IMG/VR virus record: IMGVR_UViG_3300036860_000057
Span: 14,574 to 78,573 of that record
Length of the DNA stretch: 64,000 bases
Reading direction: 5' to 3' (one strand)
From: a virus
Positions within the stretch are counted from its first letter, which is position 1. Every line of letters begins with the position of its first letter. The notes under the pieces were generated by a model. It had not been told where the DNA came from. It saw nothing but the letters and a program-made list of their open reading frames with translations, and did no database searches. The position numbers and the translations under genes are program-made. Shown piece after piece: positions 1,414 to 47,288 of this stretch.

Positions 1414-2670
1414 TTAACCTTCTCCTCCCGGTAGATACTTATCAGCAAACTTCTCAGTCCCTATCTGAATCACCGACCAAGTAGTAGAACTTGAGCAGGA
1501 AGATGTTGATCCCCAATATTCCCCACTCTTCTCTTCGGCTATGCAGAAAAATTTAACAATGTCGCCTACAGTATAGGTCAGACCTGTCAGGTTAGTGGCG
1601 ATGTTGTAATCTCTGGAAGTCCTGATATTCGTGACACGAGTATACTTATAGTATTCATCTGCATTATAAAACGCAGGAAACGATCCACTGGCAGGCGTAG
1701 GAGTCACTACTGATGTTGGTGTGGAAGTAGGTATAGGTGTAGAACTAGGAACACTTCCACCAGAACACACAACAGACAAGTCGTCTAGGTAATTATTATT
1801 GTTTCTGAAAGGCCATAGCCTTATATTATCGTAGAAAATAGTAGTCTTAGTGCTAGTTGCTACGAAGTCATAAGACACTTTCGCCCAGCGATCATACACA
1901 CCATCATCATAACCAAAGGCACGAGATTTCAGCACACCGCCAGCAAAAGCATTCGTTCCGCCAGCAGTGTCTACTAGGATATAGAATGTGGCATTTGCCT
2001 TGTCATCTGTTGTAAATAAATGACTCTTGTGCGGATCAAGATCACCATCTGCACCAGACCATGCTTGAACATAGCCAGTTGCAGTACAGGATGATCCTGG
2101 AACAGTTGTTATTGTCTGATAAATTCCTCCTTCTATGGCACGATAGAAACCAAAGTATTCTACTGCATTCGTTCCACTATGAATTCTCAAGGCATCCTGA
2201 TCTACAGCAGCAGGCTTATATTCTGGTCTGCCTAATTTTAATCCTGTAGGATTGCCAGTTCCTTGTCTGTAAGCAGGACATCCATCACAGTAAAATGCTG
2301 TCCAATCTCTTGGAACAATATGATAGAATCCATCACTATGAAGTTTACTAATATATGGTCCTTCCAGTCCACCATCTTTGAACAAGTTAGTTCCCGTTAT
2401 CTGAGTAGGAACAGCAGTAAGACTTGGCACTACTGTAGGTGTCTTAGTAGCTGAAGGTACAGCAGTGGGAGAGGGGTTTGGCGGGGTTGGGGTGAGGGTA
2501 GCGCTAGCGCTACTGGCAGGGGTAAGTGTTACTATCTTCTTGCAATAGATAGAACCTGATCCATCTGCATAGAGATCAGCTTTACAGTCAGAAGCATTGA
2601 ACTCTGTGTGAGTAGCGCCTGCACAAGCAGTAAGTAAAATAAGTGCAATGAGGATGATGTATCTTTTCAT
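1414..2670 (-). CDS. Secreted lipoprotein with carbohydrate-binding-like domain and S/T/P linkers
   Basis: Signal peptide with LTAC lipobox; NLFKDGGLE...YLDDLSV jelly-roll-like pattern. Confidence 0.6.
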   Translation of the reverse strand: MKRYIILIALILLTACAGATHTEFNASDCKADLYADGSGSIYCKKIVTLTPASSASATLTPTPPNPSPTAVPSATKTPTVVPSLTAVPTQITGTNLFKDGGLEGPYISKLHSDGFYHIVPRDWTAFYCDGCPAYRQGTGNPTGLKLGRPEYKPAAVDQDALRIHSGTNAVEYFGFYRAIEGGIYQTITTVPGSSCTATGYVQAWSGADGDLDPHKSHLFTTDDKANATFYILVDTAGGTNAFAGGVLKSRAFGYDDGVYDRWAKVSYDFVATSTKTTIFYDNIRLWPFRNNNNYLDDLSVVCSGGSVPSSTPIPTSTPTSVVTPTPASGSFPAFYNADEYYKYTRVTNIRTSRDYNIATNLTGLTYTVGDIVKFFCIAEEKSGEYWGSTSSCSSSTTWSVIQIGTEKFADKYLPGGEG

Positions 2671-3005
2671 GAGGCTATCTTACCATATTATGAGGATATG
2701 ATGTAACTGTGAGGATTGTGAAAACTTGCACGCAACTAGTTTTATTATATTATATTCTGTAAAGAATCATATAGTATAAAACTATATAGATTCATTGTAT
2801 GATCTATATAATAATAGTCCTGCTACACTATTCGTTCCGCAGTCCTATTATCATTATACCTAGCAGCATAAAACTGTCAAGTGATTCTAGGAAATTGGAT
2901 GCTTAAAATATTGATTCTAAAATTCCGTGCCTAAATATATGACTTCTTAAATTTAGATGCATTCATATAATATGTGTGTTATAATATTGTTATTCGGAGG
3001 ATATT

Positions 3006-3257
3006 ATGGCAGTGTCTTATGAAAATTATGATCAGGAAAAGTTAGTTCCATTCTCAACTTATAGTAGTCACATTCTCAGTGTGATGGGAACTGTGTTTTC
3101 TCTGCGAGTGATGCTCGAAGATACACTTCCTTATCTTCCAGAAGGGCATCGATTAGTTATTCAAGATTATATCAAGAAAACATCTGAAGAACTGAAGGAA
3201 ATTGAATTTTATATGATGAAAATCGCAGAGAATGAGGCAGACAGTGAAATAAAATGA
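3006..3257 (+). CDS. Hypothetical protein
   Basis: GGAGG RBS; stop overlaps the next ORF. Confidence 0.6.
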   Translation: MAVSYENYDQEKLVPFSTYSSHILSVMGTVFSLRVMLEDTLPYLPEGHRLVIQDYIKKTSEELKEIEFYMMKIAENEADSEIK

Positions 3258-4445: not shown

Positions 4446-4544
4446 GTAGTGTGTGGTAGCACTACATTGTAAGGCTATAGCTTGAAACTAAGAGGCTGGC
4501 TGATGACTACCACCATCAGTTGGCCTCTTAGTTTTGGGCTATAG
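4446..4544 (+). ncRNA. Two-hairpin leader RNA with complementary loops (c4-antisense-like architecture)
   Basis: Hairpin GTAGTG/CACTAC with loop TGTGGTAG; 31-bp stem 4475-4544 fully paired using G-U wobbles, loop ACTACCAC. Confidence 0.65.
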
Positions 4545-7710: not shown

Positions 7711-7717
7711 AAACTAA

Positions 7718-7744
7718 AAGAGGCTACTCAATAAGTAGCCTCTT
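7718..7744. terminator. Bidirectional intrinsic terminator between convergent operons
   Basis: AAGAGGCTACT-caata-AGTAGCCTCTT. Confidence 0.7.
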
Positions 7745-7763
7745 CTGTTATAGACTATAAAAC

Positions 7764-8861
7764 TTAGTTCTTAGATAATGCTACAGCCTGCTTGAATGCT
7801 CCATCCATTGCCTCACCACGATCACCAATTAGAATATTAGTCATCTGCTTGGCTTTATCACCACGATATACATCACTGTGGTTGATCGTCTGAGTAATGG
7901 CTTGGAATCCACCATACACAGTGTCAGCAGCATAGCTGTACTCATTATTTAACTTCTGGAAATTACCACGAGCCTCTAGGCGAAGTTCACCAATGGTTGT
8001 ATTCCTCTTGTCCATCCAATCCTGCTTATCTTGTGCTACTACGCGAGTAGCATTAATCGCCTTGGAAGATGCACCTGCTGGAATGATACGAGCAAGCTCT
8101 AGTTCTCTAGGTTCTGCTACATAAGGAAAGGCAGACACCAGCAGTGAGTCAAGTCCATCTAAAGTCAATGGAGTTCTTAGCATCTGCTCGAATTGATGAA
8201 GTGCCTTGGTTCGTTCTTTCTCAGCAATCACCATCAGATCACGCCTAAATTCTAGCTCACGATGAATGTCTCCATTGTGAGGAATTCGATGCATCTCACG
8301 AGCGCTGCTCATTGCCAGCATATATGTGTTATAGCACACTTCACGAACTGTAGTAATTCCCCAGAAGGCTGCACCAGGGCCAGAACGATCATCTGATACA
8401 TGCAGATAGGTACGTGTCTTCTCAGTCTCAATTCCACCTACTTCATAGTCTTCCATGCGTAGAGTAATGAAGCTGATCTGCCAATCTTTCACCACTGCAC
8501 AAGTCTCAACAGGATATTTCTCGGATACTGGATCGAGGATTTTGCCAAGGTCCCTGTGTTGGATCATCTTGTAGCGATTGCCAATCCCACTGCGAACCAG
8601 TCTTGGTTCAGGGTCAGATGGAATAGGCTCACGCCACATATCGAAACGATTCTTCACAGGAATACGATGCACTTCTGTAGGCTTGCCATTCTCATCATAA
8701 GCCAGAGGATATTCTGAGTAAGCTGGATGCAGAGAATACTCGAAGTTCATTCCTGCCCATTCCAGTGCTTCAGATGCAATCATAGGGGTGTTGAACACCG
8801 GCATTTTCTCGTGCCATGCCCCTGTCTCGTATCCAGCACCAATGTTGAAGTAATCAGGCAT
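7764..8861 (-). CDS. DUF932 (LGT_TIGR03299-like) phage/plasmid protein
   Basis: AWH N-terminus, Y..IQH, TTVREVCYNT motif, GFQAITQ. Confidence 0.75.
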   Translation of the reverse strand: MPDYFNIGAGYETGAWHEKMPVFNTPMIASEALEWAGMNFEYSLHPAYSEYPLAYDENGKPTEVHRIPVKNRFDMWREPIPSDPEPRLVRSGIGNRYKMIQHRDLGKILDPVSEKYPVETCAVVKDWQISFITLRMEDYEVGGIETEKTRTYLHVSDDRSGPGAAFWGITTVREVCYNTYMLAMSSAREMHRIPHNGDIHRELEFRRDLMVIAEKERTKALHQFEQMLRTPLTLDGLDSLLVSAFPYVAEPRELELARIIPAGASSKAINATRVVAQDKQDWMDKRNTTIGELRLEARGNFQKLNNEYSYAADTVYGGFQAITQTINHSDVYRGDKAKQMTNILIGDRGEAMDGAFKQAVALSKN

Positions 8862-8903
8862 TGTTCTTTCCTTTCATATAAGTGTGTTTTATAGTCTAAT
8901 TAT

Positions 8904-8932
8904 ATTATATTCCTATTTTATAGTGTTGTCAA
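8904..8932 (-). promoter_or_regulatory. sigma70 consensus promoter
   Basis: TTGACA-N17-TATAAT on minus strand. Confidence 0.75.
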
Positions 8933-9311
8933 CCAACTTCCCATCTCTGAACTCAACAATTTCTACATAATCAGCAGTTCCTACATCCCAGCGAGGATTG
9001 AAGTTAGGATCATTGAATGTATCAATATAAAGACTCCAATCCTTACTATTTCCATATTGATTAGTGAGGTAATCATAGAAAAGAGATACAGGAGTCATAG
9101 TAACCAAACACGCCTCACATCCAAAGTCTGAAATTTCTCGTGCTCCATAGTGAATTAGATAAGCATGTTGGACGATACTTTCCTTGTCTTTATGAACCCA
9201 ATGTCTGATGTATTCAGCTACATTTTTGGCATTAAATCCATTATCACCTGCAATAACCTTGCAGACTACTTCTCCATCTACTACTACTGAAACGAGTCCT
9301 TGTGTTGCCAT
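8913..9311 (-). CDS. Hypothetical protein
   Basis: AAGGA RBS; CxxC. Confidence 0.65.
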   Translation of the reverse strand: MATQGLVSVVVDGEVVCKVIAGDNGFNAKNVAEYIRHWVHKDKESIVQHAYLIHYGAREISDFGCEACLVTMTPVSLFYDYLTNQYGNSKDWSLYIDTFNDPNFNPRWDVGTADYVEIVEFRDGKLVDNTIK

Positions 9312-9434
9312 TATTGATCCTTTCTAAACATGCACGCCAATATTGAACTACTAAAATCATTAAAACATTCTCTGATTTTCCCAATCAAGTGATTTTACTG
9401 TTCCATACTATGATTTCTAATTACCATATTGATG

Positions 9435-9501
9435 TGGACCTGCTTGGAGTCGAACCAAGTTCTTGTCCCAACCTACGGGACAATCGATACCCATCAGGCC
9501 C
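9435..9501 (-). ncRNA. RNA resembling the tmRNA tRNA-like domain, with no mRNA-like domain
   Basis: GGGCCUG/CAGGUCC-A acceptor with G3-U70; unpaired AUGGGUAUCGA D-loop; 7-bp stem; GAA linker; T arm CUUGG-UUCGACU-CCAAG. Confidence 0.7.
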
Positions 9502-9525
9502 ATTCTCATCTGCCCATATGATATT

Positions 9526-9726
9526 CTAGTTGTGTGCGTAGACGTAGGTTTCAGCAGAGTTACTAGCTCTGGCGAGTTCCCATGTCTTACTCTTCATCAG
9601 CAGCTTCTTCAGTCTGTCTGTCTTAGTTCCCAGAGGAAATTCCCGTAGGAATGGAAACTCTGTGAACCACATTTGACACACACCGGAACCATACAAGAAC
9701 TGAATACGGAATAATTTTCTCATCAT
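9526..9726 (-). CDS. Hypothetical basic protein between two tRNA-like elements
   Basis: AGGAG RBS before ATG 9726; the longer track start overlaps the RNA element. Confidence 0.55.
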   Translation of the reverse strand: MMRKLFRIQFLYGSGVCQMWFTEFPFLREFPLGTKTDRLKKLLMKSKTWELARASNSAETYVYAHN

Positions 9727-9756
9727 ATCTCCTGTGAGTGTGGGCAGATGAGATAA

Positions 9757-9802
9757 TGGTGCAGCAGAGACTCGAACTCTGTGTAGGCCCACCTACCACA
9801 CC
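9757..9802 (-). ncRNA. Minimal tRNA-like RNA (acceptor stem, short hairpin, T arm)
   Basis: GGUGUGG/CUGCACC-A acceptor, UAGG/CCUA hairpin, CAGAG-UUCGAGU-CUCUG T arm. Confidence 0.6.
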
Positions 9803-9863
9803 AGAATATGCACGTCACTGTCTATCTTGATTCTATAATCAGATCAGTGATTGTGTCAAGTGA

Positions 9864-10367
9864 TTAGTATTTGTTATGAAGGTGTTTCCAGACCTTTCCT
9901 AGTTTTATACGAGATATGGCAACTTCACTTACATTGTATATCTTAGCTATTTTACTCTGCTTGATTTTATTGCTATTTAGTAATTTTATTATCTCTATTA
10001 CTTGCTCTTCTGTTAATTTAGCACTACCATGATTCTCTCCAATAGACTTAACAATCCTTCCTTTGGATTTACAGTCTTTCATATTGTCATCTTGTGTACC
10101 TAGTTTGAGGTGATTAGGATTAACACAAGAAGGATTATCACAGAGATGCATCACTAGTTTATTATCCGGTATGTCTCCATTTACTAACATCCACGACAAT
10201 CTGTGTGCTCTGTATCTCTTGTGATCAATAGCAATAATTCCATAATTATGATGATCTTTGTGCCCTAACCATTCCCAGCACTCACTATCTGATTTCTTGT
10301 TTATTTTGCTCCAAAAGTATTCAATTGGATTCATCTTTCCAAATTTGCTCATAATTTGTTCCTTCAT
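9864..10367 (-). CDS. HNH homing endonuclease with C-terminal HTH
   Basis: CWEW, AHRLSW, HLCDNPSCVNPNHL; likely start at MSKF. Confidence 0.9.
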   Translation of the reverse strand: MKEQIMSKFGKMNPIEYFWSKINKKSDSECWEWLGHKDHHNYGIIAIDHKRYRAHRLSWMLVNGDIPDNKLVMHLCDNPSCVNPNHLKLGTQDDNMKDCKSKGRIVKSIGENHGSAKLTEEQVIEIIKLLNSNKIKQSKIAKIYNVSEVAISRIKLGKVWKHLHNKY

Positions 10368-10448
10368 TTACATGCACGTAGAAATATGCACGTCAGAATA
10401 TGAGTATTGACTCAAGTGATTGATCTCTAGTGATCTTTTCTAGTGATT

Positions 10449-10631
10449 TTAGTCTCCCATACTATGGTTCGATAAGGACAGAGAAACGAAAAGTCCCCCA
10501 AAAAACACGCCAATAAGCATTGAAACAAACGTTTCGTCAATGGGCAATCCAGACCAATATCTTATTCCTGTTGATATAATCATCATCATGATAGTTATCA
10601 ACGTTCCCCTACCAACCATTTTCCAGTTCAT
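10449..10631 (-). CDS. Small two-TM membrane protein
   Basis: Two hydrophobic segments, GAGGTG RBS. Confidence 0.55.
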   Translation of the reverse strand: MNWKMVGRGTLITIMMMIISTGIRYWSGLPIDETFVSMLIGVFFGGLFVSLSLSNHSMGD

Positions 10632-10696
10632 TATCTCACCTCACAACTAGAATAATCCCTCTATAGGATGAACTATAGAGGGTGAATAGATTAGCA

Positions 10697-11824
10697 CTAT
10701 AACATAGTAGGCATAATAATGTGCCATGCAGCATACTCAGGTGTAAACTTGATCATGTATCCTATATTAGAAACATTCTTGAAATCAGCACGAATAGAAT
10801 ACCCATCGAACTTAGCAAGAGTTTCCACCAATTGGCTGATCTTGTAGCCTGACTTGATCGACTCACCAATCACATAAGCATCGACTACGCTGTCTGTAGT
10901 ACCCAGATCGCGACTAGTAGCACTCACCCGAATGATCTGCTTATCCTTGTCAGACTCAAGTGATGTGAACTCAGAAAATACTTCAGAACGTTTTAGGACA
11001 ATAGACAGACCATCAGGATCAACTCTCAGTGTATGCAGATCATTGGCAAAGAATATATGAGTGTAGTCAGGAAATTGGCCCTCTGTAAGATGCACGGCGA
11101 ATTCAGCGTTTCCAGACACAATAAACAACATTCCAGCATTGAAAATCAAGTCAATATCTTCCTCATACTTAATCTCATCAGCAAACAGTGACTTGAATTT
11201 CTCAATGGCTGATAGAGGCACGAGTCCCGATACTTTCCCATCGAATGATGGACTCCCAAACTCATATTCTCTGTGAGCCATGCGCTTAGTATCTGATGTT
11301 GTAACCTTGAGGGTGTTGGTATCATACTCGAACCAGACACCACTCAGGGCAGGCAGAACATCATCCTTAGAGGCAGCATACAACACCTCATTCAAGAGCT
11401 TCAACAGCACAGCAGCATTGATCATAATGCTAGGACTATCCTCAGCCTCATTATCTCTAGGCCAAGGAATTAAAGGGAATTCCTCACCGTCGATTCCCTT
11501 GAATGATGCTTTAGTCGCTCCGCAAACAATATTCAATTCCATCGTTCTCTGTACTATGTCTAGCTCGACTCGCTCAGGGGAGAGACGATCTACGAACTTA
11601 GCGAACCTGGTATAGGGAACACAGATTGATCCGTCCTGATCGACTACTGCCCCAACACCTACACGCATATCAGTATCCAGATCAGAAGTCTCAAGATAAA
11701 CACGCCCTGCATGAGTAGAAATTCTCACTGATTCTAGTACAGGCAGTGTTGATTTCTTAGAGACTGTCTTACCAACACGCCTCAGACCATTGGTTAGATT
11801 GTCTTGCAACATTGATACTTTCAT
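10697..11824 (-). CDS. dnaN: DNA polymerase III beta sliding clamp
   Basis: 375 aa; STLPVLE, TSDLD, EFPLIP, LSGV, SDTKRMA, GQFPDY, IIMP match DnaN motifs. Confidence 0.9.
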   Translation of the reverse strand: MKVSMLQDNLTNGLRRVGKTVSKKSTLPVLESVRISTHAGRVYLETSDLDTDMRVGVGAVVDQDGSICVPYTRFAKFVDRLSPERVELDIVQRTMELNIVCGATKASFKGIDGEEFPLIPWPRDNEAEDSPSIMINAAVLLKLLNEVLYAASKDDVLPALSGVWFEYDTNTLKVTTSDTKRMAHREYEFGSPSFDGKVSGLVPLSAIEKFKSLFADEIKYEEDIDLIFNAGMLFIVSGNAEFAVHLTEGQFPDYTHIFFANDLHTLRVDPDGLSIVLKRSEVFSEFTSLESDKDKQIIRVSATSRDLGTTDSVVDAYVIGESIKSGYKISQLVETLAKFDGYSIRADFKNVSNIGYMIKFTPEYAAWHIIMPTML

Positions 11825-11859
11825 TATGTTTATCCTTTTATTGTAACAGGCACGTCGAA

Positions 11860-12228
11860 TTAGATGTTACGTCTAAATGAGAATTGTGCAAGTGGTTTCC
11901 ATGATTCCTTTTGTCTCCAATAGGCAAATGTAGGAATCAATTTCTTATCCTCTACTAGATGACCAATGCGATCCAGTGTGCTGTTGCTAGCCGTACGCAT
12001 CTTACCGATCATTAACTGAGGATCACGAGAAAACATTACTTGTGTCTCCCCTGTATTGAGAGTCACTACCAAGACTCTATATACTTGATTAACTGGTCCC
12101 TCATAAGCATCAGGCAACATAGCATAGCACGCTGAGCAATATCCATCTCCAGCGTCATTCTCCTCTGTAATTTCATTGGCACATACACGGCAAACAGGCA
12201 CGTCAAATTCTTCATTCTCTTGTATCAT
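11860..12228 (-). CDS. Hypothetical Zn-finger protein
   Basis: CRVC...CSAC. Confidence 0.55.
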   Translation of the reverse strand: MIQENEEFDVPVCRVCANEITEENDAGDGYCSACYAMLPDAYEGPVNQVYRVLVVTLNTGETQVMFSRDPQLMIGKMRTASNSTLDRIGHLVEDKKLIPTFAYWRQKESWKPLAQFSFRRNI

Positions 12229-12259
12229 GATAGATATTCCTCTCTGTGTGATTATTAAT

Positions 12260-12308
12260 AGCCTAATTCGAGTATCCTACAACTAAGTAAGATACTCTAG
12301 GTTAAGCT
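12260..12308 (-). other. Intergenic stem with internal loop (RNase III-like site)
   Basis: AGCUUAA/UUAGGCU lower stem, 4/3 internal loop, 11-bp upper stem. Confidence 0.45.
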
Positions 12309-12807
12309 ATAAAGTGTTTTCGTCCCATCCAATAATGATATGTTTCAATCCAATTTCATTAGCTTCTGATACAATTTTATTGAATTGATCCCAGAATGAA
12401 TCACCAATCACAATAAAACTCTCAATCAAGTTATCAGGCTCAACAGTGAGCCATTTACCTTTGTTCACAAACATATTGTATTCATATACCACATTTGGAT
12501 CAATCTTGGTTGGGCCGGGATTATCTAATCGATATTCTTCGATCCAATGCTCTGCAATCTCATCAAAGTTAACCTCAGAGATCGCAGCATTGATCAGATC
12601 AGAGAACATATTAGCTTGACCGCCCAGTGGGTTATCTTCCTCTATGTATTCCTTCAGAGCATCAGCCAGATCATACACGGCGTAATCAGAGTATGGATCA
12701 GAGATCATATCTCGAACCATATCATAGCTATCTTGCTCATTGGATAACCACAGACTGACTAACCATGTCTCATGGTTGTACCATCCGTTGTATTCTTTGT
12801 GTTCCAT
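12307..12807 (-). CDS. Phage hypothetical protein (YNGW-N-ETW motif)
   Basis: AAGGAGTCA RBS before MEHK; motif YNGWYNHETWLVSLW. Confidence 0.65.
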   Translation of the reverse strand: MEHKEYNGWYNHETWLVSLWLSNEQDSYDMVRDMISDPYSDYAVYDLADALKEYIEEDNPLGGQANMFSDLINAAISEVNFDEIAEHWIEEYRLDNPGPTKIDPNVVYEYNMFVNKGKWLTVEPDNLIESFIVIGDSFWDQFNKIVSEANEIGLKHIIIGWDENTL

Positions 12808-12847
12808 CGTTTGACTCCTTGTCAAAATATGCACGTCTCTATTTATA

Positions 12848-12876
12848 ATTATATTCCTAGTTTATAACTAGGTCAA
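12848..12876 (-). promoter_or_regulatory. sigma70 promoter with an inverted repeat in the spacer
   Basis: TTGACC-N17-TATAAT; CCTAGT-N5-ACTAGG inverted repeat. Confidence 0.65.
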
Positions 12877-13036
12877 TACTTCATTACGATATGGTAATTA
12901 GAAATACATGCACGTCTAAAACATGCACGGAGAAATATCAGTATTGAATCTCTGCACTATGATTCTCTGATTCTTCCAACCTAGTGATTTAGTTCTACTT
13001 ACTATGATTTCAGATTGTCCTATTCTCTGCTCGACT

Positions 13037-13273
13037 CTAGTAGTGACCTAGTGTCAATTCAGCGCGTATCTGATTGAACCTATGTACAGATGAACGATAG
13101 GATCGACCTAAACGATCCTTATTGCTTCGAGATACGAAACTAAAGATAGCTAGTTTCCTAATCTCAGGATCAATGTTTTCTGATATACACTGGAAACGTA
13201 TAAACCCTATGCCCAGTTTCCAATTAGCTCGAACTATATGGTAGGCTCGTTTATACTGCTGCTTAGTTGTCAT
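13037..13273 (-). CDS. Hypothetical basic protein
   Basis: GAGGA RBS. Confidence 0.6.
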   Translation of the reverse strand: MTTKQQYKRAYHIVRANWKLGIGFIRFQCISENIDPEIRKLAIFSFVSRSNKDRLGRSYRSSVHRFNQIRAELTLGHY

Positions 13274-13407
13274 GATAATTATCCTCTCACAATTGATTGA
13301 TCATACTCTAATAGCAGAGCGCTAGACTGCGCACAATGTCGCTAATTCTAGCGCTATGGTGATTAAGGTAGGATGCTACCTAGATCGCGGATTAGACGAT
13401 TCTAGGG

Positions 13408-14004
13408 CTATTGTATCTTGTCTACTGATTTATAGGTGTATGGCACACTTCCCACATAACCATAGACTGATCCATATTCACCCTCCAGTTCCTCAACAAA
13501 TAACCCACCATATGCTGATAGGTCTTTGCCGATTGACTCCCCAATGGCTGTAATCTCTTGGCTATCAGTAATGAGAGTTAATCTAGGATCAATATCTTCT
13601 ATTGTCTGGAACACATCAAAGTGAAATCTCTTTATGTCCCACACGTTGACAAATCCCTGATCGCTTTCATATAAATAGACCGATCTGATTGACTCGTCTA
13701 TCAATTCTGGAAACAGAACGTAATCAACTAGATCAACATCATAGCGCCACACCATAGGCAAATCAGATGCATCTGCTAGATCATCACTGTCTAGTCCAAA
13801 CTCGCCAGCATAGGCTAGTTCAGCCTCTGATGTTGCGTCAAAGTCTGGTGGATCACCCCATAGTTGGAGATTATCCCACATATAGGGAACGTATCGGGGA
13901 TTAGATTCAAACTTCCCTAGGTTACTTACTCTAATCTGATAATCCTCAAGATCGTACATATCAGATTCTAATAGATCATTCTCATCATAGAACTTGTTAA
14001 TCAT
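13408..14004 (-). CDS. Acidic hypothetical protein
   Basis: Coupled to upstream ORF; D/E-rich. Confidence 0.65.
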   Translation of the reverse strand: MINKFYDENDLLESDMYDLEDYQIRVSNLGKFESNPRYVPYMWDNLQLWGDPPDFDATSEAELAYAGEFGLDSDDLADASDLPMVWRYDVDLVDYVLFPELIDESIRSVYLYESDQGFVNVWDIKRFHFDVFQTIEDIDPRLTLITDSQEITAIGESIGKDLSAYGGLFVEELEGEYGSVYGYVGSVPYTYKSVDKIQ

Positions 14005-14587
14005 TATCTGACTCCTCTAATAGTCCTAGACTTTCGCAAGCATCGCGAATATCTGACGAGTCAAAATACCCATCTTCAGAATACTTGTTATTATCGCCTA
14101 ACCACGACCATACTTTACTGACATTCTCATCTAAGTTATCAATACTCAAATAACGTAATTCTTGATAGATACAATCACCCTCAGATTCATATTCTTTATT
14201 ACTCCAGTGATCCTCATCTGCTACCGGATATAGATTCAATTTGTCTAACCAACCTTTGATAGCTACAGCCGCAGCAGTAGGTAGACCACACTCATTGATC
14301 ATACGGATCATAAGATTCTCAGTAGGCGTAAACCAGGATGAGAATCGCTCGATTGTGGTATCATCCGAGAAACGTTCGATCATATCTTCAGAGATAACTT
14401 CCCAGTTTGAATCCTCAAGTAAGTTAGATACGTTAGGAGCATAGCTATACATGATTGCCCATGTATCCCCGATAGGTGTATCCCCATGATAGCCAAATCC
14501 ACCCATAGATCGCCGTGAGATTTCACGAGGATCACTAGCATGGATATGCTTGGAACAATAGTCTAATAACTCGATGTCATAAATCAT
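13997..14587 (-). CDS. Acidic hypothetical protein
   Basis: AAGGAGTCA RBS; YPVADED motif. Confidence 0.65.
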   Translation of the reverse strand: MIYDIELLDYCSKHIHASDPREISRRSMGGFGYHGDTPIGDTWAIMYSYAPNVSNLLEDSNWEVISEDMIERFSDDTTIERFSSWFTPTENLMIRMINECGLPTAAAVAIKGWLDKLNLYPVADEDHWSNKEYESEGDCIYQELRYLSIDNLDENVSKVWSWLGDNNKYSEDGYFDSSDIRDACESLGLLEESDND

Positions 14588-14599
14588 GATTTGACTCCT

Positions 14600-14794
14600 T
14601 TATAAATAGAATGGTTTATCTTTGATATAGCTAACACACTTCTTAGTATCTTTGCATGGGGCAGCATAGATAGGAAAGTGCAAGGCAACATAGATCGCCA
14701 TATGCTGATCAATGCTGGCGATCATACTATCAACATCTGAGCTATCCGATAGATGAGATAACTCATTATCAAACTGCAGTAGAATACTAGTCAT
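14600..14794 (-). CDS. Hypothetical protein
   Basis: AAGGA RBS. Confidence 0.5.
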   Translation of the reverse strand: MTSILLQFDNELSHLSDSSDVDSMIASIDQHMAIYVALHFPIYAAPCKDTKKCVSYIKDKPFYL

Positions 14795-14914
14795 AGATTG
14801 ATCCTTAATGCGTCGTGTGAGACGCTACAACAGCCCTAGATTTGATGATACAACAAATCCCCTAGACTAGCCTTGCACTAGTCAGCCGCGTCTAACGGAT
14901 AGGGGATATGATAG

Positions 14915-15541
14915 TTATTTTTTACCGTTACTTGTGAAGTGTTTGACTGTCCAGTCTACCATGTTATCAAATGGGTGACCCTTGCTATTCCACTTGGCTA
15001 CAGTAGACTCCAGCCATTTGCACTCCTCATCATTAAGCATCCGATTCAGTTTGTCAGAATCACTCATTACGTTTCGTACTTGAATCCAATCGATCTTACC
15101 TGAGACGAACGATCCATTATCCTTTGATTTGTTACCGTTAGACTTAGCCTTGCTATTCTCACCCTTTGGGGAATTCACATGCTTAGTCTTGCCGAGTACA
15201 CTGCCCATCACATCATAGGCAATCTCACGGATAGAATTATCAGGAACGATCTCAATATCAATTGGTGTATGCCCATTGGCTAAACCTTGAGACACTAGGT
15301 CAATGTTTCCTTCACTGTCCATCACAGGGACCAAATCCTTAGCGCCCTTAGTGAATCCGGGCAGCATCCCGATAGCGAGGTCATCATTGATCCGCTTAGT
15401 CTTGATCTTGCCATAGCGCAATTCGATATTCTCTGTTTCCAACTGGCGTACATACTTCTCAATATCGTCAGCATATGCTTCCCATTCTCTAACATATCCG
15501 GGAAACATAAAGTGAACTAACTTAACTGTGAATGTGTTCAT
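14915..15541 (-). CDS. Hypothetical protein
   Basis: GGAG RBS before MNTF. Confidence 0.6.
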   Translation of the reverse strand: MNTFTVKLVHFMFPGYVREWEAYADDIEKYVRQLETENIELRYGKIKTKRINDDLAIGMLPGFTKGAKDLVPVMDSEGNIDLVSQGLANGHTPIDIEIVPDNSIREIAYDVMGSVLGKTKHVNSPKGENSKAKSNGNKSKDNGSFVSGKIDWIQVRNVMSDSDKLNRMLNDEECKWLESTVAKWNSKGHPFDNMVDWTVKHFTSNGKK

Positions 15542-15604
15542 GATATTTTTCTCCATATATCTCTAATTAGAATTCTAGCACGATACTCTATAGGATGCAA
15601 GACC

Positions 15605-15847
15605 CTATAGAACGACCTTACGTAGTCTCAACGTTTCCCACTGTGACCACGTTCCATTGTTCTGCATATGGCGCACCACAACATACTTACGATAGTCTAC
15701 TGTGATAAGACCATACTGCAAGCCAATCGATGATCCTACACTGGCGATAGACTTTACCGCACGATAGACAACGTATCTAGTGGGGACTACTGATGCGGCA
15801 TTGTAGTCCATTGTGACGGGCGATTTGACGTTATGCTTAATGACCAT
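15605..15847 (-). CDS. Hypothetical protein
   Basis: AGGAGTCA RBS before MVIK. Confidence 0.55.
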   Translation of the reverse strand: MVIKHNVKSPVTMDYNAASVVPTRYVVYRAVKSIASVGSSIGLQYGLITVDYRKYVVVRHMQNNGTWSQWETLRLRKVVL

Positions 15848-16325
15848 GATCTGACTCCTGTTTAGGTACTGACTTATAAAAGTATCCATAGACACATCGA
15901 GTCCCACCCCGTGTGCAATCATAGGTATCATTCAATACCCCATCTATGACTGCTGCGGAATGCTTAGACACATTGACAACTAACCTACCCATAGGCAATT
16001 CACCGTCTCGAAGGTGTACAGTACATCCTTTGCCTATTTGCATAGTTGATACCCATGTCCAGCCAATCGACTCCATATAACGGCGGATAGTTGGCTTGTA
16101 GACTCCCGTTCTGGCGTTAGACTTGCCTTGCTTGTTCTTACTCTTGTGTTCTGTCTTAGCAAGGTTATTAATAGCCTTGTAGACTGTTTTGTAGTTTTGT
16201 TCGGTAGCTATTGCAATTGCTCTTACTACACAATCTGCGGCTTGTCCTTTATAACCTGCTGCGGATCGCCCACCGTCATTATAATGAAAGGCCATTCCTA
16301 CTACTGGGGGAAGGCTTGCTGTCAT
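15837..16325 (-). CDS. Phage protein with possible Cys-His-Asp triad
   Basis: YNDGGR, DCVVRAIAIA, H...IDG..NDTYD. Confidence 0.6.
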   Translation of the reverse strand: MTASLPPVVGMAFHYNDGGRSAAGYKGQAADCVVRAIAIATEQNYKTVYKAINNLAKTEHKSKNKQGKSNARTGVYKPTIRRYMESIGWTWVSTMQIGKGCTVHLRDGELPMGRLVVNVSKHSAAVIDGVLNDTYDCTRGGTRCVYGYFYKSVPKQESDHGH

Positions 16326-16350
16326 GATTGACTCCTTGAGTGTGATTAGA

Positions 16351-16411
16351 TTTGTGCTCTCATGAATACTCGTTAAGCCCTACCCTAACGAGTATTAGAT
16401 CAGAGTACAAA
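16351..16411 (-). other. Intergenic stem with 5/4 internal loop (RNase III-like site)
   Basis: UUUGUACUCU/AGAGCACAAA lower stem with one mismatch, GAUCU/CAUG loop, 11-bp AAUACUCGUUA/UAACGAGUAUU upper stem. Confidence 0.5.
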
Positions 16412-16413
16412 AC

Positions 16414-16734
16414 TTACTGAGCGTTGTAGTAGTTACGATATAGCTCCATGCCCACAATGTAACCTTGTCCTGTCCATTGGATCACTGTTTCAGGGAAAGG
16501 CTTACCCATATCATACTCTATGCCTCGAACCGCATAGTGCTTAGTCCCTACTAGTGAGAGGCTAATAGTACGATAACGAGTAATCCCGTTCACTTGCCAA
16601 TTATCCTGACAAGTTACACTGTCTGAGAATTGATCTACTGTATAGCTCATGTCCTCATATAATGTAACGAGTCGCCCTGGTTGACAATCTGAAGCATGAA
16701 ACCCTATCAACAACGCGAGTAGTAATGCTGTCAT
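16414..16734 (-). CDS. Hypothetical secreted protein
   Basis: Hydrophobic N-terminus, AAGGAG RBS. Confidence 0.6.
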   Translation of the reverse strand: MTALLLALLIGFHASDCQPGRLVTLYEDMSYTVDQFSDSVTCQDNWQVNGITRYRTISLSLVGTKHYAVRGIEYDMGKPFPETVIQWTGQGYIVGMELYRNYYNAQ

Positions 16735-16753
16735 GTGTGACTCCTTTAAGTCT

Positions 16754-16809
16754 GGACTCTTCAGTGTAGCTAGTTAGCTACAGACTGGGGACAAGCCCCA
16801 GTTTCGTCC
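16754..16809 (-). ncRNA. Type II hammerhead ribozyme HH-A
   Basis: GGAC-GAAA-CUGGGG(cuugu)CCCCAG-UC^UGUAGC(uaacua)GCUACA-CUGAAGA-GUCC; complete core, three stems, GUC cleavage triplet. Confidence 0.92.
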
Positions 16810-16991
16810 TATAGCTCCCATCGGGGAGCATCACCTCGGCGCATCATCTCATCATTGACTAGTTCTAATTCCTTGCGTATCTGATCCTGGTATTCCTCAG
16901 TCTGATACAGATCAGGATCATCAAGAATAATCAGTAAGTCTAGACGCTTCCAAGAGATTTGTTCGTCGTCTAACTTCTGTAGACTTCTCAT
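16809..16991 (-). CDS. Hypothetical protein flanked by two hammerheads
   Basis: AAGGAG RBS before MRSLQK; the track start lies inside HH-B. Confidence 0.6.
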   Translation of the reverse strand: MRSLQKLDDEQISWKRLDLLIILDDPDLYQTEEYQDQIRKELELVNDEMMRRGDAPRWEL

Positions 16992-17006
16992 TATGTGACT
17001 CCTTGT

Positions 17007-17067
17007 TAGGCTCATCAGTACAGGCTATTACCTGTAGACTAGGGAAAGTATCCCTAGTTTCGTCCTA
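17007..17067 (-). ncRNA. Type II hammerhead ribozyme HH-B
   Basis: UAGGAC-GAAA-CUAGGGA(uacuu)UCCCUAG-UC^UACAGG(uaauag)CCUGUA-CUGAUGA-GCCUA; stem II has a bulged A. Confidence 0.88.
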
Positions 17068-17328
17068 TAGACCAAATCCGTTATCAATAAAGAAACGAGT
17101 AAACCCTATTTCAACAATTCCCCATACAGTGGTCTTGATTAGACCCTCGTTGTTATTAAGAAAATATTGCTTACCCCAGTAAGGATCAATCTTGATTTGA
17201 ATAACCGTGAAAGTGTGATTTTTCTGCATATGGAATAACGTACCGTCAATCCTGACAACATCCCCTACTGACAACATAGGATCAGGATTAGTTTTAACTG
17301 GAACTAGAGGCATACGAAACTTAAGCAT
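17065..17328 (-). CDS. Hypothetical protein
   Basis: AAGGAG RBS before MLKFR. Confidence 0.55.
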   Translation of the reverse strand: MLKFRMPLVPVKTNPDPMLSVGDVVRIDGTLFHMQKNHTFTVIQIKIDPYWGKQYFLNNNEGLIKTTVWGIVEIGFTRFFIDNGFGL

Positions 17329-17339
17329 TGGTAGACTCC

Positions 17340-17555
17340 TTATTTCACGAAAGTATAAATAGGGCGATTGTACTGTGCTGCTAATTTCATTAACTCTACT
17401 GCTACCGCCCATTCACAATTGTACTTATTGCATATTGTTTCCACTACTGCTATCTGCTGAGGCGTTCCGCTTAGTCGCATCTTAGACTCTAGTGAATTAG
17501 AGTAAGAGGCTGTAAGTAGGTCGTCTGGGTTGTACTGGCTGATTACTGTGTTCAT
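17340..17555 (-). CDS. Hypothetical protein, first gene of the leftward array
   Basis: ORF downstream of the promoter. Confidence 0.5.
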   Translation of the reverse strand: MNTVISQYNPDDLLTASYSNSLESKMRLSGTPQQIAVVETICNKYNCEWAVAVELMKLAAQYNRPIYTFVK

Positions 17556-17607
17556 CTGATTAGCTCTATGTTGTGTGTGTGTTTGCTTAATCTCGAACTA
17601 TGACAAC

Positions 17608-17636
17608 ATCATAATCTATAATTATAAACTTGTCAA
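17608..17636 (-). promoter_or_regulatory. sigma70 promoter driving the leftward array
   Basis: TTGACA-N17-TATGAT. Confidence 0.7.
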
Positions 17637-27189: not shown

Positions 27190-29241
27190 ATGGCAGATTT
27201 ACAAAATAGTCTACAGATTGTGTCAGAAATAAAAGAAGTAAACCCAGCAACTATCAGTGATAGATCAGTTGTTGAGACTCCACGTGTTGATGAACGGATG
27301 AATCCGATCAGCCCTCTGGTAATGTTCATAGCCAACAATGCAGATGGTATGATTCCCTGGGGCAAGGCACTTAAGGCCAGAGATGCTCAGCTTCGATCAT
27401 TCTGGTTGGAAGAGTCTTTGTTATCCTCTGCTGTGTTTAGTATGTCAGCGAGAATGGCAGTCTTAGGCTATGAAATAGTCAACTCCGATCCTGATAAGCC
27501 TCGCCAGAAGAATACTATCATGGCAGTTGAAAGAATGCTTCGCAACTCAGATCGTGGTAAGGGTTGGCAGGTGTTTCTAGTTAAACTTCTGGTTGATCTC
27601 TACACTCAGGATAATGGTGCATTTATTGAACTGATCCGTAAAGAGAATCGTCCTGATTCACCTGTGATTAATATTGCTCACCTTGACTCTTACTCTTGTT
27701 ATCGCACAGGTGATCCTCTCATTCCAGTGATCTATCGAGATCGTTTTGGCAATGATCACAAGATGCCTTGGTGGTCTATTCAGACTGTCGAGGAAATGCC
27801 TTCTCCTGTAGAAACAATGTATGGTGCTCAGATGTGTGCAGTGACACGATGTCTGATGGCTGCCCAGATCATTCGTGATGTGGCAATTTATAAAAAGGAA
27901 AAAATTTCAGGACAGTTTGCCAAGGCCCTACACTTTATATCTGGTATTGCTAAAGGCAACGTTGAGGATGGGATTCAATTGGCAAATGAGAATGCCATGA
28001 ACCAGAATCTTACCCACTATATTCAGCCTCCTATCATCTCAACAATTGATCCAGATGCCTCACTAACCCATGTGCAGATTGATCTTGCATCACTGCCTGA
28101 TGGGTTTAATGAAGACCTGACTTTACAATGGTACGTCACACAACTGGCAGTAGCCTTTGGTGTTGACTACCAAGAGTTTGCCCCTCTAACAAGTGGAAGT
28201 ATGGGATCAGGCCAGCAGTCTGAGACACTGCATTTGAAGTCTCGTGGTAAGGGGCCTGCTCTGCTGATCAGTATGCTGGAGCATATTCTAAATGATACAG
28301 GTGTTCTTCCTTCCAATATAAAGTTTCAATTCTTGGTTACAGATGCACAGGCTGATGAAGCTCGTGCTAATGCTAGATTCCTACGTGGTAAGGATCGTGC
28401 TTTGCGTGTGTCTTCTGGTGAATTGGATATTGAAGCTGCTCGTGAATTGGCAAAAGAAGACTCAGATATACCAGTATGGTTATTAGAGTCAATGAAGAAT
28501 CGTCCTATTCCAACACCAGTGAATCAGCAGTTGAATGGTGGTGGAGGCTCTGCACCTGCTCCTAAGCAGAGAACTGCTATCGGGAATGAGAATGTGGAAG
28601 GTGGGTTGAACTCCAGGGCTACTAGAAAGTCCTATGAGAGTGATCTGGTTCGATCTGAGATAATAAAAAGGCTCCTTGAAAGAGGGGATATGAAGGAGAT
28701 TGATCCTTCTGGATTTGTCTATCTTTGTTTAGAGAATGATCCACAAATTACCAGTATACTAAGAGATTATCAGCAACTTATGGATGATCCCAATATTGAA
28801 TGGCAATCTGTTCCCACTTTTCATATTACACTTGCTTATGCTCCAGAAGTAACTTATGCACAACTTCTTGAAGTATCTCAGTCTATTCACATGCCTCAGC
28901 CTATACCAGTTGATCTTGATCATATTCATATGTTTGAAGCAGGGAATGATTCTTTTGCTCGTGCTCTAGTGATGCTAGTGAAGAAGAATGAATATCTAAT
29001 TCAGTTGCAGAAACAAGTTGTAGACATTTTTAATGGAATGGGAATTTTACTATCTCCCTACAGTAATCCTGATGTGTGGACTCCTCATATCACTATTGGG
29101 TATATTCCAAGTAGTGCGGATGTTCCAGAAGTTTTACCACCTATGTATCATAGAATAATAGCAGATAAGACGGTAGTAGGTAAAGGCGACTATGAAAAAT
29201 TTGCAACTATCCAAGCCCCTAAAATGGGTGGTGTATATTAA
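27190..29241 (+). CDS. Portal protein with C-terminal 2H phosphoesterase domain
   Basis: Position after TerL; portal-like N-terminal ~480 aa; FHITLAY and PHITIGY HxT motifs about 88 aa apart. Confidence 0.8.
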   Translation: MADLQNSLQIVSEIKEVNPATISDRSVVETPRVDERMNPISPLVMFIANNADGMIPWGKALKARDAQLRSFWLEESLLSSAVFSMSARMAVLGYEIVNSDPDKPRQKNTIMAVERMLRNSDRGKGWQVFLVKLLVDLYTQDNGAFIELIRKENRPDSPVINIAHLDSYSCYRTGDPLIPVIYRDRFGNDHKMPWWSIQTVEEMPSPVETMYGAQMCAVTRCLMAAQIIRDVAIYKKEKISGQFAKALHFISGIAKGNVEDGIQLANENAMNQNLTHYIQPPIISTIDPDASLTHVQIDLASLPDGFNEDLTLQWYVTQLAVAFGVDYQEFAPLTSGSMGSGQQSETLHLKSRGKGPALLISMLEHILNDTGVLPSNIKFQFLVTDAQADEARANARFLRGKDRALRVSSGELDIEAARELAKEDSDIPVWLLESMKNRPIPTPVNQQLNGGGGSAPAPKQRTAIGNENVEGGLNSRATRKSYESDLVRSEIIKRLLERGDMKEIDPSGFVYLCLENDPQITSILRDYQQLMDDPNIEWQSVPTFHITLAYAPEVTYAQLLEVSQSIHMPQPIPVDLDHIHMFEAGNDSFARALVMLVKKNEYLIQLQKQVVDIFNGMGILLSPYSNPDVWTPHITIGYIPSSADVPEVLPPMYHRIIADKTVVGKGDYEKFATIQAPKMGGVY

Positions 29242-35179: not shown

Positions 35180-35296
35180 AAAAATGGAAGGTCTGATACT
35201 GGAGTAAGATGTTCGAACCATCAGCCTTCCAGTTGCCCATGAGGGCATTTTCCTGCGGATTGAGGGGAGTGAACTGAAGGCACTCCCCTCTTTATT

Positions 35297-35555: not shown

Positions 35556-35613
35556 GGGCCAATTATTCCGGTGAATGCTAGCTATGGCGGATTCGACTCC
35601 CGCTTGGTCCGCC
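35556..35613 (+). ncRNA. Truncated tRNA-like RNA with G3-U70
   Basis: GGGCCAA/TTGGTCC acceptor, GCGGA-TTCGACT-CCCGC T arm, shortened middle. Confidence 0.5.
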
Positions 35614-40247: not shown

Positions 40248-41225
40248 ATGCAGTTAAAAGGCAGAATTTTTATTACAGGTGGTTCTGGATCACTTGGAAC
40301 CGCCATTCTGGAACGTGCTGAAAGAGAAAAGTGGGATGCAGAGTTTACCATCTTAGCTCGTAATGAGACTAAGATGTCACAAACATTAAAGAGATTTCCT
40401 GGTGTAAGGGGTGAGATTGGTGACATTAGGGATTTGGCATGGTTGGGTACAATTTTCCCAGGACACGATCTAGTTATACACACTGCTGCTATTAAACAAG
40501 TACCTACAGCAGAGGTAAATGTCAGAGAAGCATTTCTGACAAATGTACAAGGGTCACAAAATGTGGCAATGGCGGCAGTAGAGTCTGGTGTTGGAAAAGT
40601 TATAGGAATTTCAACAGACAAAGCCTGCCAGCCCACAACCATTTATGGCTGTACAAAATATTTAATGGAAGGACTATTTAGAGAAGCCAATAAATGGGCT
40701 GACAATACTAGATTTAATTTGGTGCGATATGGAAATGTACTAAGATCAAACGCCAGTGTAGTCCCCCTGTTTGAAAGACTCATCTCTGAAGACAAGCCAT
40801 TTACTATAACTGATCTAAGGATGACACGTTTCTGGCTTAGTATGAACGAAGCTATTGATTTGATTATTACGTCTGTATTGTGGCCTGATTGGGGAATTAC
40901 TTTAGTTCCTAAGCCCCCAGCACTATCAATGATAGACTTAGCTCGCTATATGGATGGAAGTAGAAAAATTATTGAGGTTGGTATAAGACCAGGAGAAAAG
41001 GTACACGAACAACTGATAAATTCGAGTGAGTCATTACATACTATTGATACAGGAGATTTATTTGTGGTATTCCCTCCTACTGTAGAAGTTAATAGCAATC
41101 TTCCTCTTGGTTATGAATATGTGAGTAATGATCCATCTTATTATTTAAGTAAAGAGAAATTATATAAAATGCTTGATGAATATAATCCATATGGTGGAAA
41201 ACAATGGTTGCTGTCAGAAATTTAA
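40248..41225 (+). CDS. NDP-sugar 4,6-dehydratase (PseB/CapD-like)
   Basis: ITGGSGSLG, HTAAIKQVP, ISTDKA, YGCTK, VRYGNV, MTRF, GIRPGEK. Confidence 0.9.
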   Translation: MQLKGRIFITGGSGSLGTAILERAEREKWDAEFTILARNETKMSQTLKRFPGVRGEIGDIRDLAWLGTIFPGHDLVIHTAAIKQVPTAEVNVREAFLTNVQGSQNVAMAAVESGVGKVIGISTDKACQPTTIYGCTKYLMEGLFREANKWADNTRFNLVRYGNVLRSNASVVPLFERLISEDKPFTITDLRMTRFWLSMNEAIDLIITSVLWPDWGITLVPKPPALSMIDLARYMDGSRKIIEVGIRPGEKVHEQLINSSESLHTIDTGDLFVVFPPTVEVNSNLPLGYEYVSNDPSYYLSKEKLYKMLDEYNPYGGKQWLLSEI

Positions 41226-47045: not shown

Positions 47046-47288
47046 ATGATTAGTGAAATTGAATTTGATAAGACATGGAGTGATTACGATCCTTTCTCCG
47101 ATCATGATCATGGAAATGACATGTGTGCTGGTTGCTTTACGTATACTGTAACTTGTCATCACTGTCATATGGGACTAATGCACAGTAATTTCATAAGTGT
47201 TGATGATGAACAGATGATTGAGTTTTTGTGTGATCAGTGTGGAAAATATTTTGTAGATAACTACCAGCAGAAAAGGTATGTTGCTTGA
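47046..47288 (+). CDS. Small Cys-rich protein
   Basis: CAGC, CHHC, CDQC. Confidence 0.5.
   Translation: MISEIEFDKTWSDYDPFSDHDHGNDMCAGCFTYTVTCHHCHMGLMHSNFISVDDEQMIEFLCDQCGKYFVDNYQQKRYVA

Follow-up and report, generated by a model that had tools for sequence, protein, structure and literature searches.

Detailed knowledge of mRNA processing in phages comes, as far as we are aware, from a small number of models, RNase III cutting in T7 being one; Dunn and Studier reportedly described the RNase III processing of T7 early mRNA. Type II hammerhead ribozymes occur in multiple copies around single genes in phages and prophages, and their cleavage has been demonstrated both in vitro and in living cells (Perreault et al. 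2011, PMC3088659). Theta ribozymes, which resemble those of hepatitis delta virus (HDV), adjoin phage tRNAs and are linked to tRNA 3' maturation (PMC10879173). The t-elements of plant mitochondria recruit RNase P and RNase Z, making mRNA ends (Forner et al. 2007, PMC1920247). Here we compare these systems with a stretch of 64,000 nucleotides (nt), hereafter the window, that comprises bases 14574-78573 of a 78,573-bp IMG/VR virus record (IMGVR_UViG_3300036860_000057) judged to be ~99% complete; positions are those of the window unless stated otherwise. The genome is that of an uncultured tailed phage of ~78.6 kb that encodes a family A DNA polymerase (PolA), a DnaB-type helicase, a DnaG-type primase, a sliding clamp, a terminase and a tape-measure protein. 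The region of interest is its leftward early/accessory block, an array of 19 co-oriented minus-strand open reading frames (ORFs; 17555 to 7764) with hammerheads, tRNA-like elements and hairpins at its gene junctions.

A prior interpretation of the letters alone (the sequence-only reading) had suggested that this array is the best candidate in the window for an undescribed system. We conclude that it is a real mosaic, partly known, and that it consists of mostly known kinds of element over several transcription units rather than forming a single coordinated system that is new. We consider it fairly probable that the block produces several transcripts and that hammerheads, a tRNA-like cassette and a mixed set of hairpins are three unrelated kinds of element placed in the gaps between a stop codon and the next ribosome binding site (RBS). 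The inventory itself held up: about 20 leftward genes with structured junctions had been proposed, we count 19 ORFs, and every listed element is present at its position with a fold that beats dinucleotide shuffles (z -1.4 to -6.2). Nearly all of the elements do occupy the gap from a stop codon to an (A)AGGAG-type RBS, much as had been described. The enrichment of structure in the array is modest: whole junctions there average a z of about -1.6, and co-oriented junctions elsewhere about -0.6. What is most novel is a miniature transfer-messenger RNA (tmRNA)-like RNA together with a clamped-ORF cassette. Sequences, folds, family membership and promoter matches are observations, and the cleavage events discussed below are inferred, as is any effect that they might have on mRNA stability.

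By their sequences, the two hammerheads (HH_a, 16754-16809, and HH_b, 17007-17067) are genuine type II hammerheads, and this part of the sequence-only reading was borne out. In both, GAAAC leads into the stem III hairpin, which is followed by GUC, then by the stem I hairpin and CUGA(U/A)GA; stem II is open, which is the type II topology. The core is CUGAUGA or CUGAAGA with GAAA and the cleavage triplet GUC. Stems I and III are perfect helices of 7-8 bp whose sequences differ between the two copies, stem II of HH_a is GGAC/GUCC, and the three-way-junction folds have z of -3.0 and -3.6. A search of IMG/VR with the same core pattern matched at least 120 contigs, many with 2-5 copies, and the stems were well formed in 129 of the 165 matches retrieved. 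A covariance model (R1) was built from 60 independent IMG/VR phage hammerheads; the stems of this training set covary, with 97.6% of cells paired and none of 500 shuffles as good. R1 scores HH_a at 56.9 bits (E 3e-11) and HH_b at 47.1 bits (E 6e-9), with no other match in the 78.6-kb genome. A relaxed descriptor covering all three hammerhead topologies likewise found only these two in the whole genome, and the Rfam models for twister, twister-sister, pistol, hatchet and HDV-like ribozymes had no match at E<=1 in any junction. We rejected a hammerhead type III match that spans both elements (17.3 bits), since it arises from the two type II copies being similar and in tandem.

The setting of the two hammerheads is also typical. 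Among 116 comparison hammerheads, 105 directly adjoin the stop codon of an ORF with 50 codons or more (58 overlap or touch the stop, like the copies in the window), and an RBS and start codon follow within 60 nt in 100. The UAG stop of the upstream 87-amino-acid (aa) ORF overlaps the 5' end of HH_b, and an RBS begins 5 nt past the hammerhead. A 162-aa ORF has homologues of 60% identity in four hammerhead-bearing contigs, on the strand opposite the hammerhead, and the junction upstream of these homologues is short and unstructured, so that they are uninformative about swapping of elements. Matching of flanks among hammerhead loci is in any case a biased test, as each locus was selected for carrying a hammerhead. 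Given the clusters described by Perreault et al., the hammerhead part of the array is already known; it is another example and adds nothing new.

We postulate that HH_a and HH_b self-cleave after C16783 and C17037, separating the first genes of an 11-gene promoter-proximal unit. The predicted cuts would free a 254-nt RNA (17036-16783) that carries the 60-aa ORF. At each cut, the stem III hairpin, bearing a 2',3'-cyclic phosphate, would form the 3' end of the upstream piece, and the downstream piece would begin with the stem I hairpin and a 5'-OH. The distinction between 5'-OH ends from hammerheads and 5'-phosphate ends, which the earlier interpretation had invoked, is textbook biochemistry. 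Searches of the phage proteins for RNase III, RtcB, RNA ligase and SmpB found none, so processing would have to rest on self-cleavage and host enzymes. The predicted cut sites are precise enough for direct testing.

Elsewhere in the window, a plus-strand gene (27190-29241) encodes a 683-aa protein with a C-terminal 2H phosphoesterase domain (PF13563, 29.8 bits; LigT-like). Enzymes of the 2H type act on 2',3'-cyclic phosphates, the type of end that hammerheads leave. Any link between this protein and the hammerhead ends is speculative.

The two tRNA mimics of the array (9435-9501 and 9757-9802) are tRNA-derived, to judge from primary and predicted secondary structure. Both have a 7-bp acceptor stem on a 5-bp T stem and a canonical T arm with G53-C61 and a UUCGANU loop, in keeping with the UUCRANY loop that defines a minihelix. 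They lack a D arm and have at most an atypical anticodon arm, and neither element is called as a canonical tRNA by ARAGORN or the Rfam tRNA model. A strict descriptor of acceptor and T arm identified 5 distinct elements in the genome, versus a mean of 0.01 in 200 shuffles, so the proposed mimics stand. The acceptor/T-arm half of tRNA is the part that RNase P and RNase Z recognise. The earlier suggestion that these folds recruit the two enzymes agrees with the presence of this half, and also with the tRNA genes of the phage itself: none encodes CCA, which fits a host that uses the RNase Z pathway. In our view, excision of the tRNA-derived elements of the array would be inevitable.

The shorter mimic is a 46-nt minihelix that starts ~20 nt past a near-consensus promoter and has U at position -1, which, like the missing CCA, would suit cleavage by these enzymes; it matches the Rfam mascRNA model (RF01684) with 26.1 bits, below the gathering score of 42.5. 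Two unrelated phage contigs, both high in GC, likewise have a minihelix of 42-43 nt in a stop-RBS slot, on the strand that bears their type II hammerheads: L039:6005-6046 (-) and L097:11062-11104 (-) (2 versus 0.05 expected in 1.9 Mb). When the gene beside the L097 minihelix was searched for relatives, only that gene itself was returned.

The longer mimic, of 67 nt, can be assigned by its sequence to a tmRNA-like family, of which it is a shortened member that keeps only the tRNA-like domain. It has a stemless D-loop analogue and the pair G3-U70 with A73, the hallmarks of alanine identity. An mRNA-like domain or tag reading frame is absent from the element, and ARAGORN finds no tmRNA there. A pattern search of IMG/VR based on this element recovered 49 unique phage RNAs of 74-86 nt, all with a full acceptor stem. 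A73 is present in 49 of 49, although the search pattern did not demand it, and G3-U70 and A73 are invariant in the 47 relatives that were aligned. The helices of the family covary (98.3% of cells), and a model built from these 47 relatives (R2) matches the element in the window over its full length with 58.9 bits (E 1.6e-13). The window copy is shorter, and in place of the inner hairpin of its relatives the helix is closed by a loop of 7 nt. Eleven of 15 tested loci bearing relatives score above the Rfam tmRNA gathering score (47-79 bits), over only ~80 nt. We therefore classify the ~80-nt phage relatives, from their sequence features, as tmRNAs without the mRNA-like domain.

Since the 67-nt element belongs to this family, it is probably a separate RNA product with a function of its own, a putative alanine-identity mimic of the tRNA-like domain of tmRNA. 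The description of this element as a tRNA mimic was thus right about its tRNA-derived acceptor and T arm and fell short in treating it as a mere processing element, the family being one of tmRNA-like RNAs. Members of the family (loci L141-L232, e.g., L156:5273-5352 (-) and L174:5624-5700 (+)) are missed by ARAGORN, and R2 has no match in 0.87 Mb of hammerhead-bearing loci. A literature search found no publication describing such phage tmRNA-like RNAs, and this family of at least 49 is apparently undescribed. It could show how phages tap or block ribosome rescue.

The two tRNA-like elements flank a 66-aa ORF in a cassette (9435-9863) that begins with its own promoter. Inverted repeats of 13 nt abut the tRNA-like elements within 2-3 nt, and the 13-bp clamp that they form (z -4.3) is present in both the minimum free energy (MFE) and the centroid fold. 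Neither the 66-aa ORF nor the 60-aa ORF between the hammerheads has homologues among the retrieved IMG/VR loci. From the promoter onward, the order would be minihelix, 13-bp-clamped 66-aa ORF and miniature tmRNA. Cleavage by host RNase P 5' of each tRNA-like element, with 3' trimming by RNase Z or an exonuclease, would yield two small tRNA-like RNAs and an mRNA with paired ends. Going further, the cassette might be a self-contained module in which one short transcript gives the minihelix, an mRNA whose ends are sealed by the duplex, and a 67-nt alanine-identity mimic that acts on host trans-translation, with the tRNA-like RNAs serving as both punctuation and effectors alongside the hammerheads. 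We think this extended proposal unlikely as a whole. If true, the 13-bp duplex would protect the mRNA ends and possibly allow ligation.

The alternative that survives best is that the tRNA-like elements are mainly effectors. The 67-nt RNA would then be an alanine-accepting mimic of tmRNA, a decoy or minimal rescuer for SmpB, alanyl-tRNA synthetase (AlaRS), EF-Tu or stalled ribosomes, with the minihelix as a further small RNA or decoy and cutting of the mRNA as a by-product. We regard this as a real possibility that falls somewhat short of being probable. It is attractive because G3-U70 and A73 are present in the element, with A73 retained throughout the relatives without having been demanded, because relatives match Rfam tmRNA above the gathering score, and because at least three further anticodon-less mimics are found in the phage outside the array. 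Among the 48 relatives with enough flanking DNA, 14 are beside tRNA genes, which suits an effector; however, 30 follow the end of an ORF and 11 are between two ORFs, which also fits punctuation. In addition, the element in the window is a shortened variant that Rfam tmRNA does not see, the phage encodes no SmpB, and the exact 13-bp clamp, which abuts the minihelix as well as the 67-nt element, suggests some importance of the released mRNA.

Outside the array, relaxing the descriptor of acceptor and T arm adds two anticodon-less mimics in the plus-strand tRNA cluster. We noted a 46-nt minihelix-like element at 35186-35231 (+), a 56-nt anticodon-less mimic with G3-U70 at 35556-35611 (+), and a 64-nt tRNA mimic with an anticodon arm capped by GCAA at 12522-12585 (-) of the genome, 1988-2051 bases before the window starts. 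All three are in or near tRNA clusters, and none is a strong match to R2.

The hairpins are a mixed set. The six predicted stems or junctions all fold, with z of -3.0 to -6.2 against dinucleotide shuffles; this includes the proposed multi-way junction at 14857-14907, which is predicted to be a three-way junction (z -3.3). The idea that the long stems are RNase III-type sites survived in part. All of them fold, and two, at 12260-12308 (20 bp) and 16351-16411 (24 bp), resemble the imperfect duplexes of ~20 bp that RNase III cuts; the rest have only 10-12 bp, and one is terminator-like. We suspect that the two longer hairpins are candidate RNase III sites or 3' stabilisers and that one of the others is a leaky terminator. 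The hairpins could instead be leaky terminators or attenuators, protectors of 3' ends, protein-binding operators, or incidental palindromes at gene ends that read YTATAG, an account that we consider possible and rather unlikely. Consistent with it, the stem at 10657-10682 matches the terminator scan, a U-rich run comes after the junction at 14857-14907, three stems are no longer than 10-12 bp, and five of the 19 genes end in TATAG, with CTATAG at the base of several hairpins (including one at 4475-4544). On the other hand, most stems lack a U tract, and apart from the weak fit at 10657-10682 none has the features of an intrinsic terminator. Two stems reach 20-24 bp with internal loops, like the RNase III sites of T7, and G-U pairs make several specific to the transcribed strand, among them 16351-16411 and 12260-12308 (for the latter, -24.3 kcal/mol on the minus strand versus -17.2 on the plus strand).

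The five gene ends read (C/T)TATAG, a Leu codon plus UAG (17065, 16809, 15605, 12307 and 10697, minus strand); genome-wide, CTATAG occurs 30 times versus 22 expected and is not over-represented. The hairpin at 4475-4544 (+) is the longest in the window, with 31-nt arms that are 81% complementary, a junction z of -7.0 and CTATAG at both ends; it lies outside the array, between two rightward genes and upstream of a DNA methylase. The 12-mer CATCCTATAGAG was considered as a promoter for a phage polymerase and rejected: its two exact copies are not above chance, and no T7-like polymerase was found.

Transcription of the array most clearly separates our view from the sequence-only reading, which had one transcript being cut into units. 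Four near-consensus sigma-70 promoters, at the head of the array and within it, together with a repeated promoter/CGTGCAT module, are the reason that the claim of one transcript fails. The module, running from an AATCACT box to CGTGCATRTT, is common to junctions J11, J15, J16 and J17. CGTGCAT itself has nine copies versus 1.5 expected, seven of them at 9326-12929 (-). CGTGCATRTT with AATCACT upstream of it probably serves short gene cassettes as a promoter plus operator, or else as a conserved 5' end of their transcripts, in repeated copies. It had been proposed that the longer junctions carry structured RNA; this is true of the listed elements, which fold, and not of the long junctions J11, J15, J16 and J17, which are explained by promoter/operator modules and not by processing elements. 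We postulate that transcription of the block by host RNA polymerase starts at four or more promoters of the sigma-70 type and produces several transcripts, with the hammerheads and most stems in the first unit of 11 genes and the tRNA-like elements in a short cassette of their own.

We consider it improbable that one long early transcript is cut at interchangeable modules so that 5'-OH and 5'-phosphate ends tune the mRNA stability of each gene in a coordinated way. Different kinds of element do fill equivalent stop-RBS slots, hammerheads and minihelices do occur together on one strand in two other phage contigs, and the end chemistries are established biochemistry. Against these stand the promoters and the repeated module just described, the position of the tRNA mimics in a separate promoter-proximal cassette 7 kb from the hammerheads, the stems that are mostly too short for RNase III, and the frequent occurrence of relatives of the 67-nt element beside tRNA genes (14/48). 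That the tRNA-like elements are decaying, functionless tRNA genes is very unlikely: they do lack functional anticodon arms and are rejected by ARAGORN and Rfam tRNA, but their acceptor and T arms are perfect with the middle swapped for compact hairpins, 49 unique phage copies of the 67-nt type show covariation, and an exact 13-bp clamp adjoins both.

Several observations weigh against the interpretation that we favor, that of several transcripts with three unrelated kinds of element in stop-RBS gaps. The promoter calls are consensus matches, and the total found is not above that in shuffles. The stems are thermodynamic predictions only. Stem II of HH_b has a C-A mismatch or bulge at a position that is U in 116 of 116 comparison hammerheads. 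Neither hammerhead reaches the gathering score of the Rfam Hammerhead_II model (RF02276; 37 bits), HH_b scoring 25.4 bits and HH_a having no match at E<=1, a shortfall explained by the pseudoknot and the stem II of 2 bp for which that model is built. Likewise, the Rfam tmRNA and tRNA models do not reach the 67-nt element (RF00023 gives no match at E<=10; gathering score 47 bits). The training sets of both R1 and R2 were fetched with patterns taken from the elements in the window (for R1, the hammerhead core), and the cores match by construction. Finally, no relatives of the phage were found in the collections searched, so the array elements have no positional conservation or covariation of their own.

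The search for relatives covered several collections. GenBank phages, in near and distant mode, gave none, the sole match being a mobile HNH gene; IMG/VR, queried with the clamp, a clamp alignment or the terminase, gave none; and JGI metagenomes and GTDB genomes gave cellular matches at the level of dnaN only, with no phage relatives. Relatives of the sliding clamp at 45-75% identity do exist (P0002-P0005). The best cellular matches of the clamp (10697-11824, -) are from Anaerolineae/Chloroflexi at 31-34% identity, a weak hint of the host. An RNA polymerase, including a T7-like one, was not detected in the phage, and the control search for it was uninformative. Within the array, the clamp, an HNH endonuclease, DUF7249 and DUF932 could be assigned to families; the other ORFs, which make up most of the array, have no known family. 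The features of the array are collected in the table below.

Table. Promoters, RNA elements and small ORFs in and around the leftward array, in the direction of transcription (window positions)
Feature	Position	Strand	Remarks
Sigma-70-like promoter at array head, TTGACA-17-TATGAT	17608-17636	-	11/12 consensus matches; intergenic
Type II hammerhead HH_b	17007-17067	-	Predicted cut 3' of C17037; full core, three-way-junction fold
60-aa ORF between the hammerheads	16809-16991	-	No Pfam or PHROG match
Type II hammerhead HH_a	16754-16809	-	Core CUGAAGA; predicted cut 3' of C16783
Long imperfect hairpin, 24 bp, 1 G-U pair	16351-16411	-	Starts 2 nt past stop; z -6.2, junction z -5.2; RNase III-like geometry
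11-bp hairpin over stop codon	15586-15612	-	12-mer CATCCTATAGAG in common with hairpin 10657-10682
Predicted three-way junction, 19 bp, then U-rich run	14857-14907	-	z -3.3; no Rfam match at E<=1
12-bp hairpin	13318-13355	-	Two smaller hairpins just upstream, 13360-13407
Promoter/operator repeat junction	12806-13036	-	AATCACT box, three CGTGCAT, promoter 12876-12848
Near-consensus sigma-70 promoter	12876-12848	-	Inside junction 12806-13036
20-bp hairpin with internal loop	12260-12308	-	Starts in stop codon; z -5.5; RNase III-like geometry
10-bp hairpin after sliding-clamp gene, U-rich tail	10657-10682	-	Terminator scan match; weak terminator fit
Promoter/operator module, two CGTGCAT	10368-10448	-	Upstream of HNH endonuclease gene
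Promoter (9859-9830) plus CGTGCAT motif	9803-9863	-	Leader ends at first base of minihelix
Near-consensus sigma-70 promoter	9859-9830	-	Upstream of minihelix
tRNA top-half minihelix, 46 nt	9757-9802	-	7-bp acceptor, 4-bp hairpin, T arm, discriminator A, U at position -1
5' arm of 13-bp duplex	9741-9753	-	In both MFE and centroid fold
66-aa ORF, AGGAG RBS	9526-9726	-	Between minihelix and 67-nt element
3' arm of 13-bp duplex	9504-9516	-	Exact 13-nt inverted repeat of 9741-9753
tmRNA-like RNA, tRNA-like domain only, 67 nt	9435-9501	-	G3-U70, A73, no anticodon, no tag reading frame
Promoter/operator module	9312-9434	-	Upstream of 132-aa ORF
Consensus sigma-70 promoter for DUF932 gene	8904-8932	-	12/12 matches
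Bidirectional intrinsic terminator closing array	7716-7746	.	Junction z -6.1; G+C-rich hairpin and U tract

Two further regions of the window lie apart from these features. A stretch of 962 nt between leftward genes (2191-3152, -) has no ORF of 50 codons or more and no Rfam match at the gathering threshold. In the late region, polysaccharide-biosynthesis and multi-domain glycosyltransferase genes are located at 40248-41225 and 47285-49618 (+).

The array resembles each of several described systems in part. The hammerheads are of the same type as the clusters of Perreault et al. (PMC3088659), are in tandem around a small gene and have the same intercistronic position, and their spacing of ~250 nt is like that of pairs in other IMG/VR contigs. 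They differ from known examples in scoring below the Rfam gathering score, in a stem II of 4-5 bp, in having no evident pseudoknot between loop I and the tail, and in the stem II mismatch of HH_b. Theta ribozymes (PMC10879173) are likewise small ribozymes that form RNA ends in tailed phages; however, they are of a different class, act in tRNA 3' maturation and not at mRNA junctions, and none was found in our Rfam scans. The likeness to T7 early mRNA lies in imperfect intercistronic hairpins of ~20 bp with an internal loop, set among co-oriented early genes, which when cut would leave 3' hairpins on the upstream RNAs. However, only two of the six stems have such a geometry, as predicted, and the phage is unrelated to T7, with no RNA polymerase of its own detected.

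The 67-nt type has in common with tmRNA (RF00023) the pair G3-U70, A73, a stemless D-loop analogue ending in UCGA, a helix at the 2a position and a T arm. The element in the window differs from tmRNA in having no mRNA-like domain, tag frame or pseudoknots, in not being reached by RF00023, and in the absence of a phage SmpB. The other closest known form is the reduced tmRNA of jakobid mitochondria (mentioned in PMC3590771). For the minihelix, mascRNA of MALAT1 (RF01684) offers a parallel as a small tRNA-like RNA released from a longer transcript by RNase P and RNase Z, as we propose here; the match is below the gathering score and implies no evolutionary relation, and the analogy is one of mechanism only. 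The closest model for how the minihelix might act is provided by mitochondrial punctuation and t-elements (PMC1920247), which are tRNA-like structures between the ORFs of a polycistronic RNA. The minihelix differs from t-elements in its phage setting, in comprising only the acceptor/T-arm half, and in being paired with a duplex that clamps the ends of an mRNA. We suspect that the broader interest of the locus lies in this combination, in one genome, of host-independent cutting by hammerheads with host tRNA-processing signals at gene boundaries.

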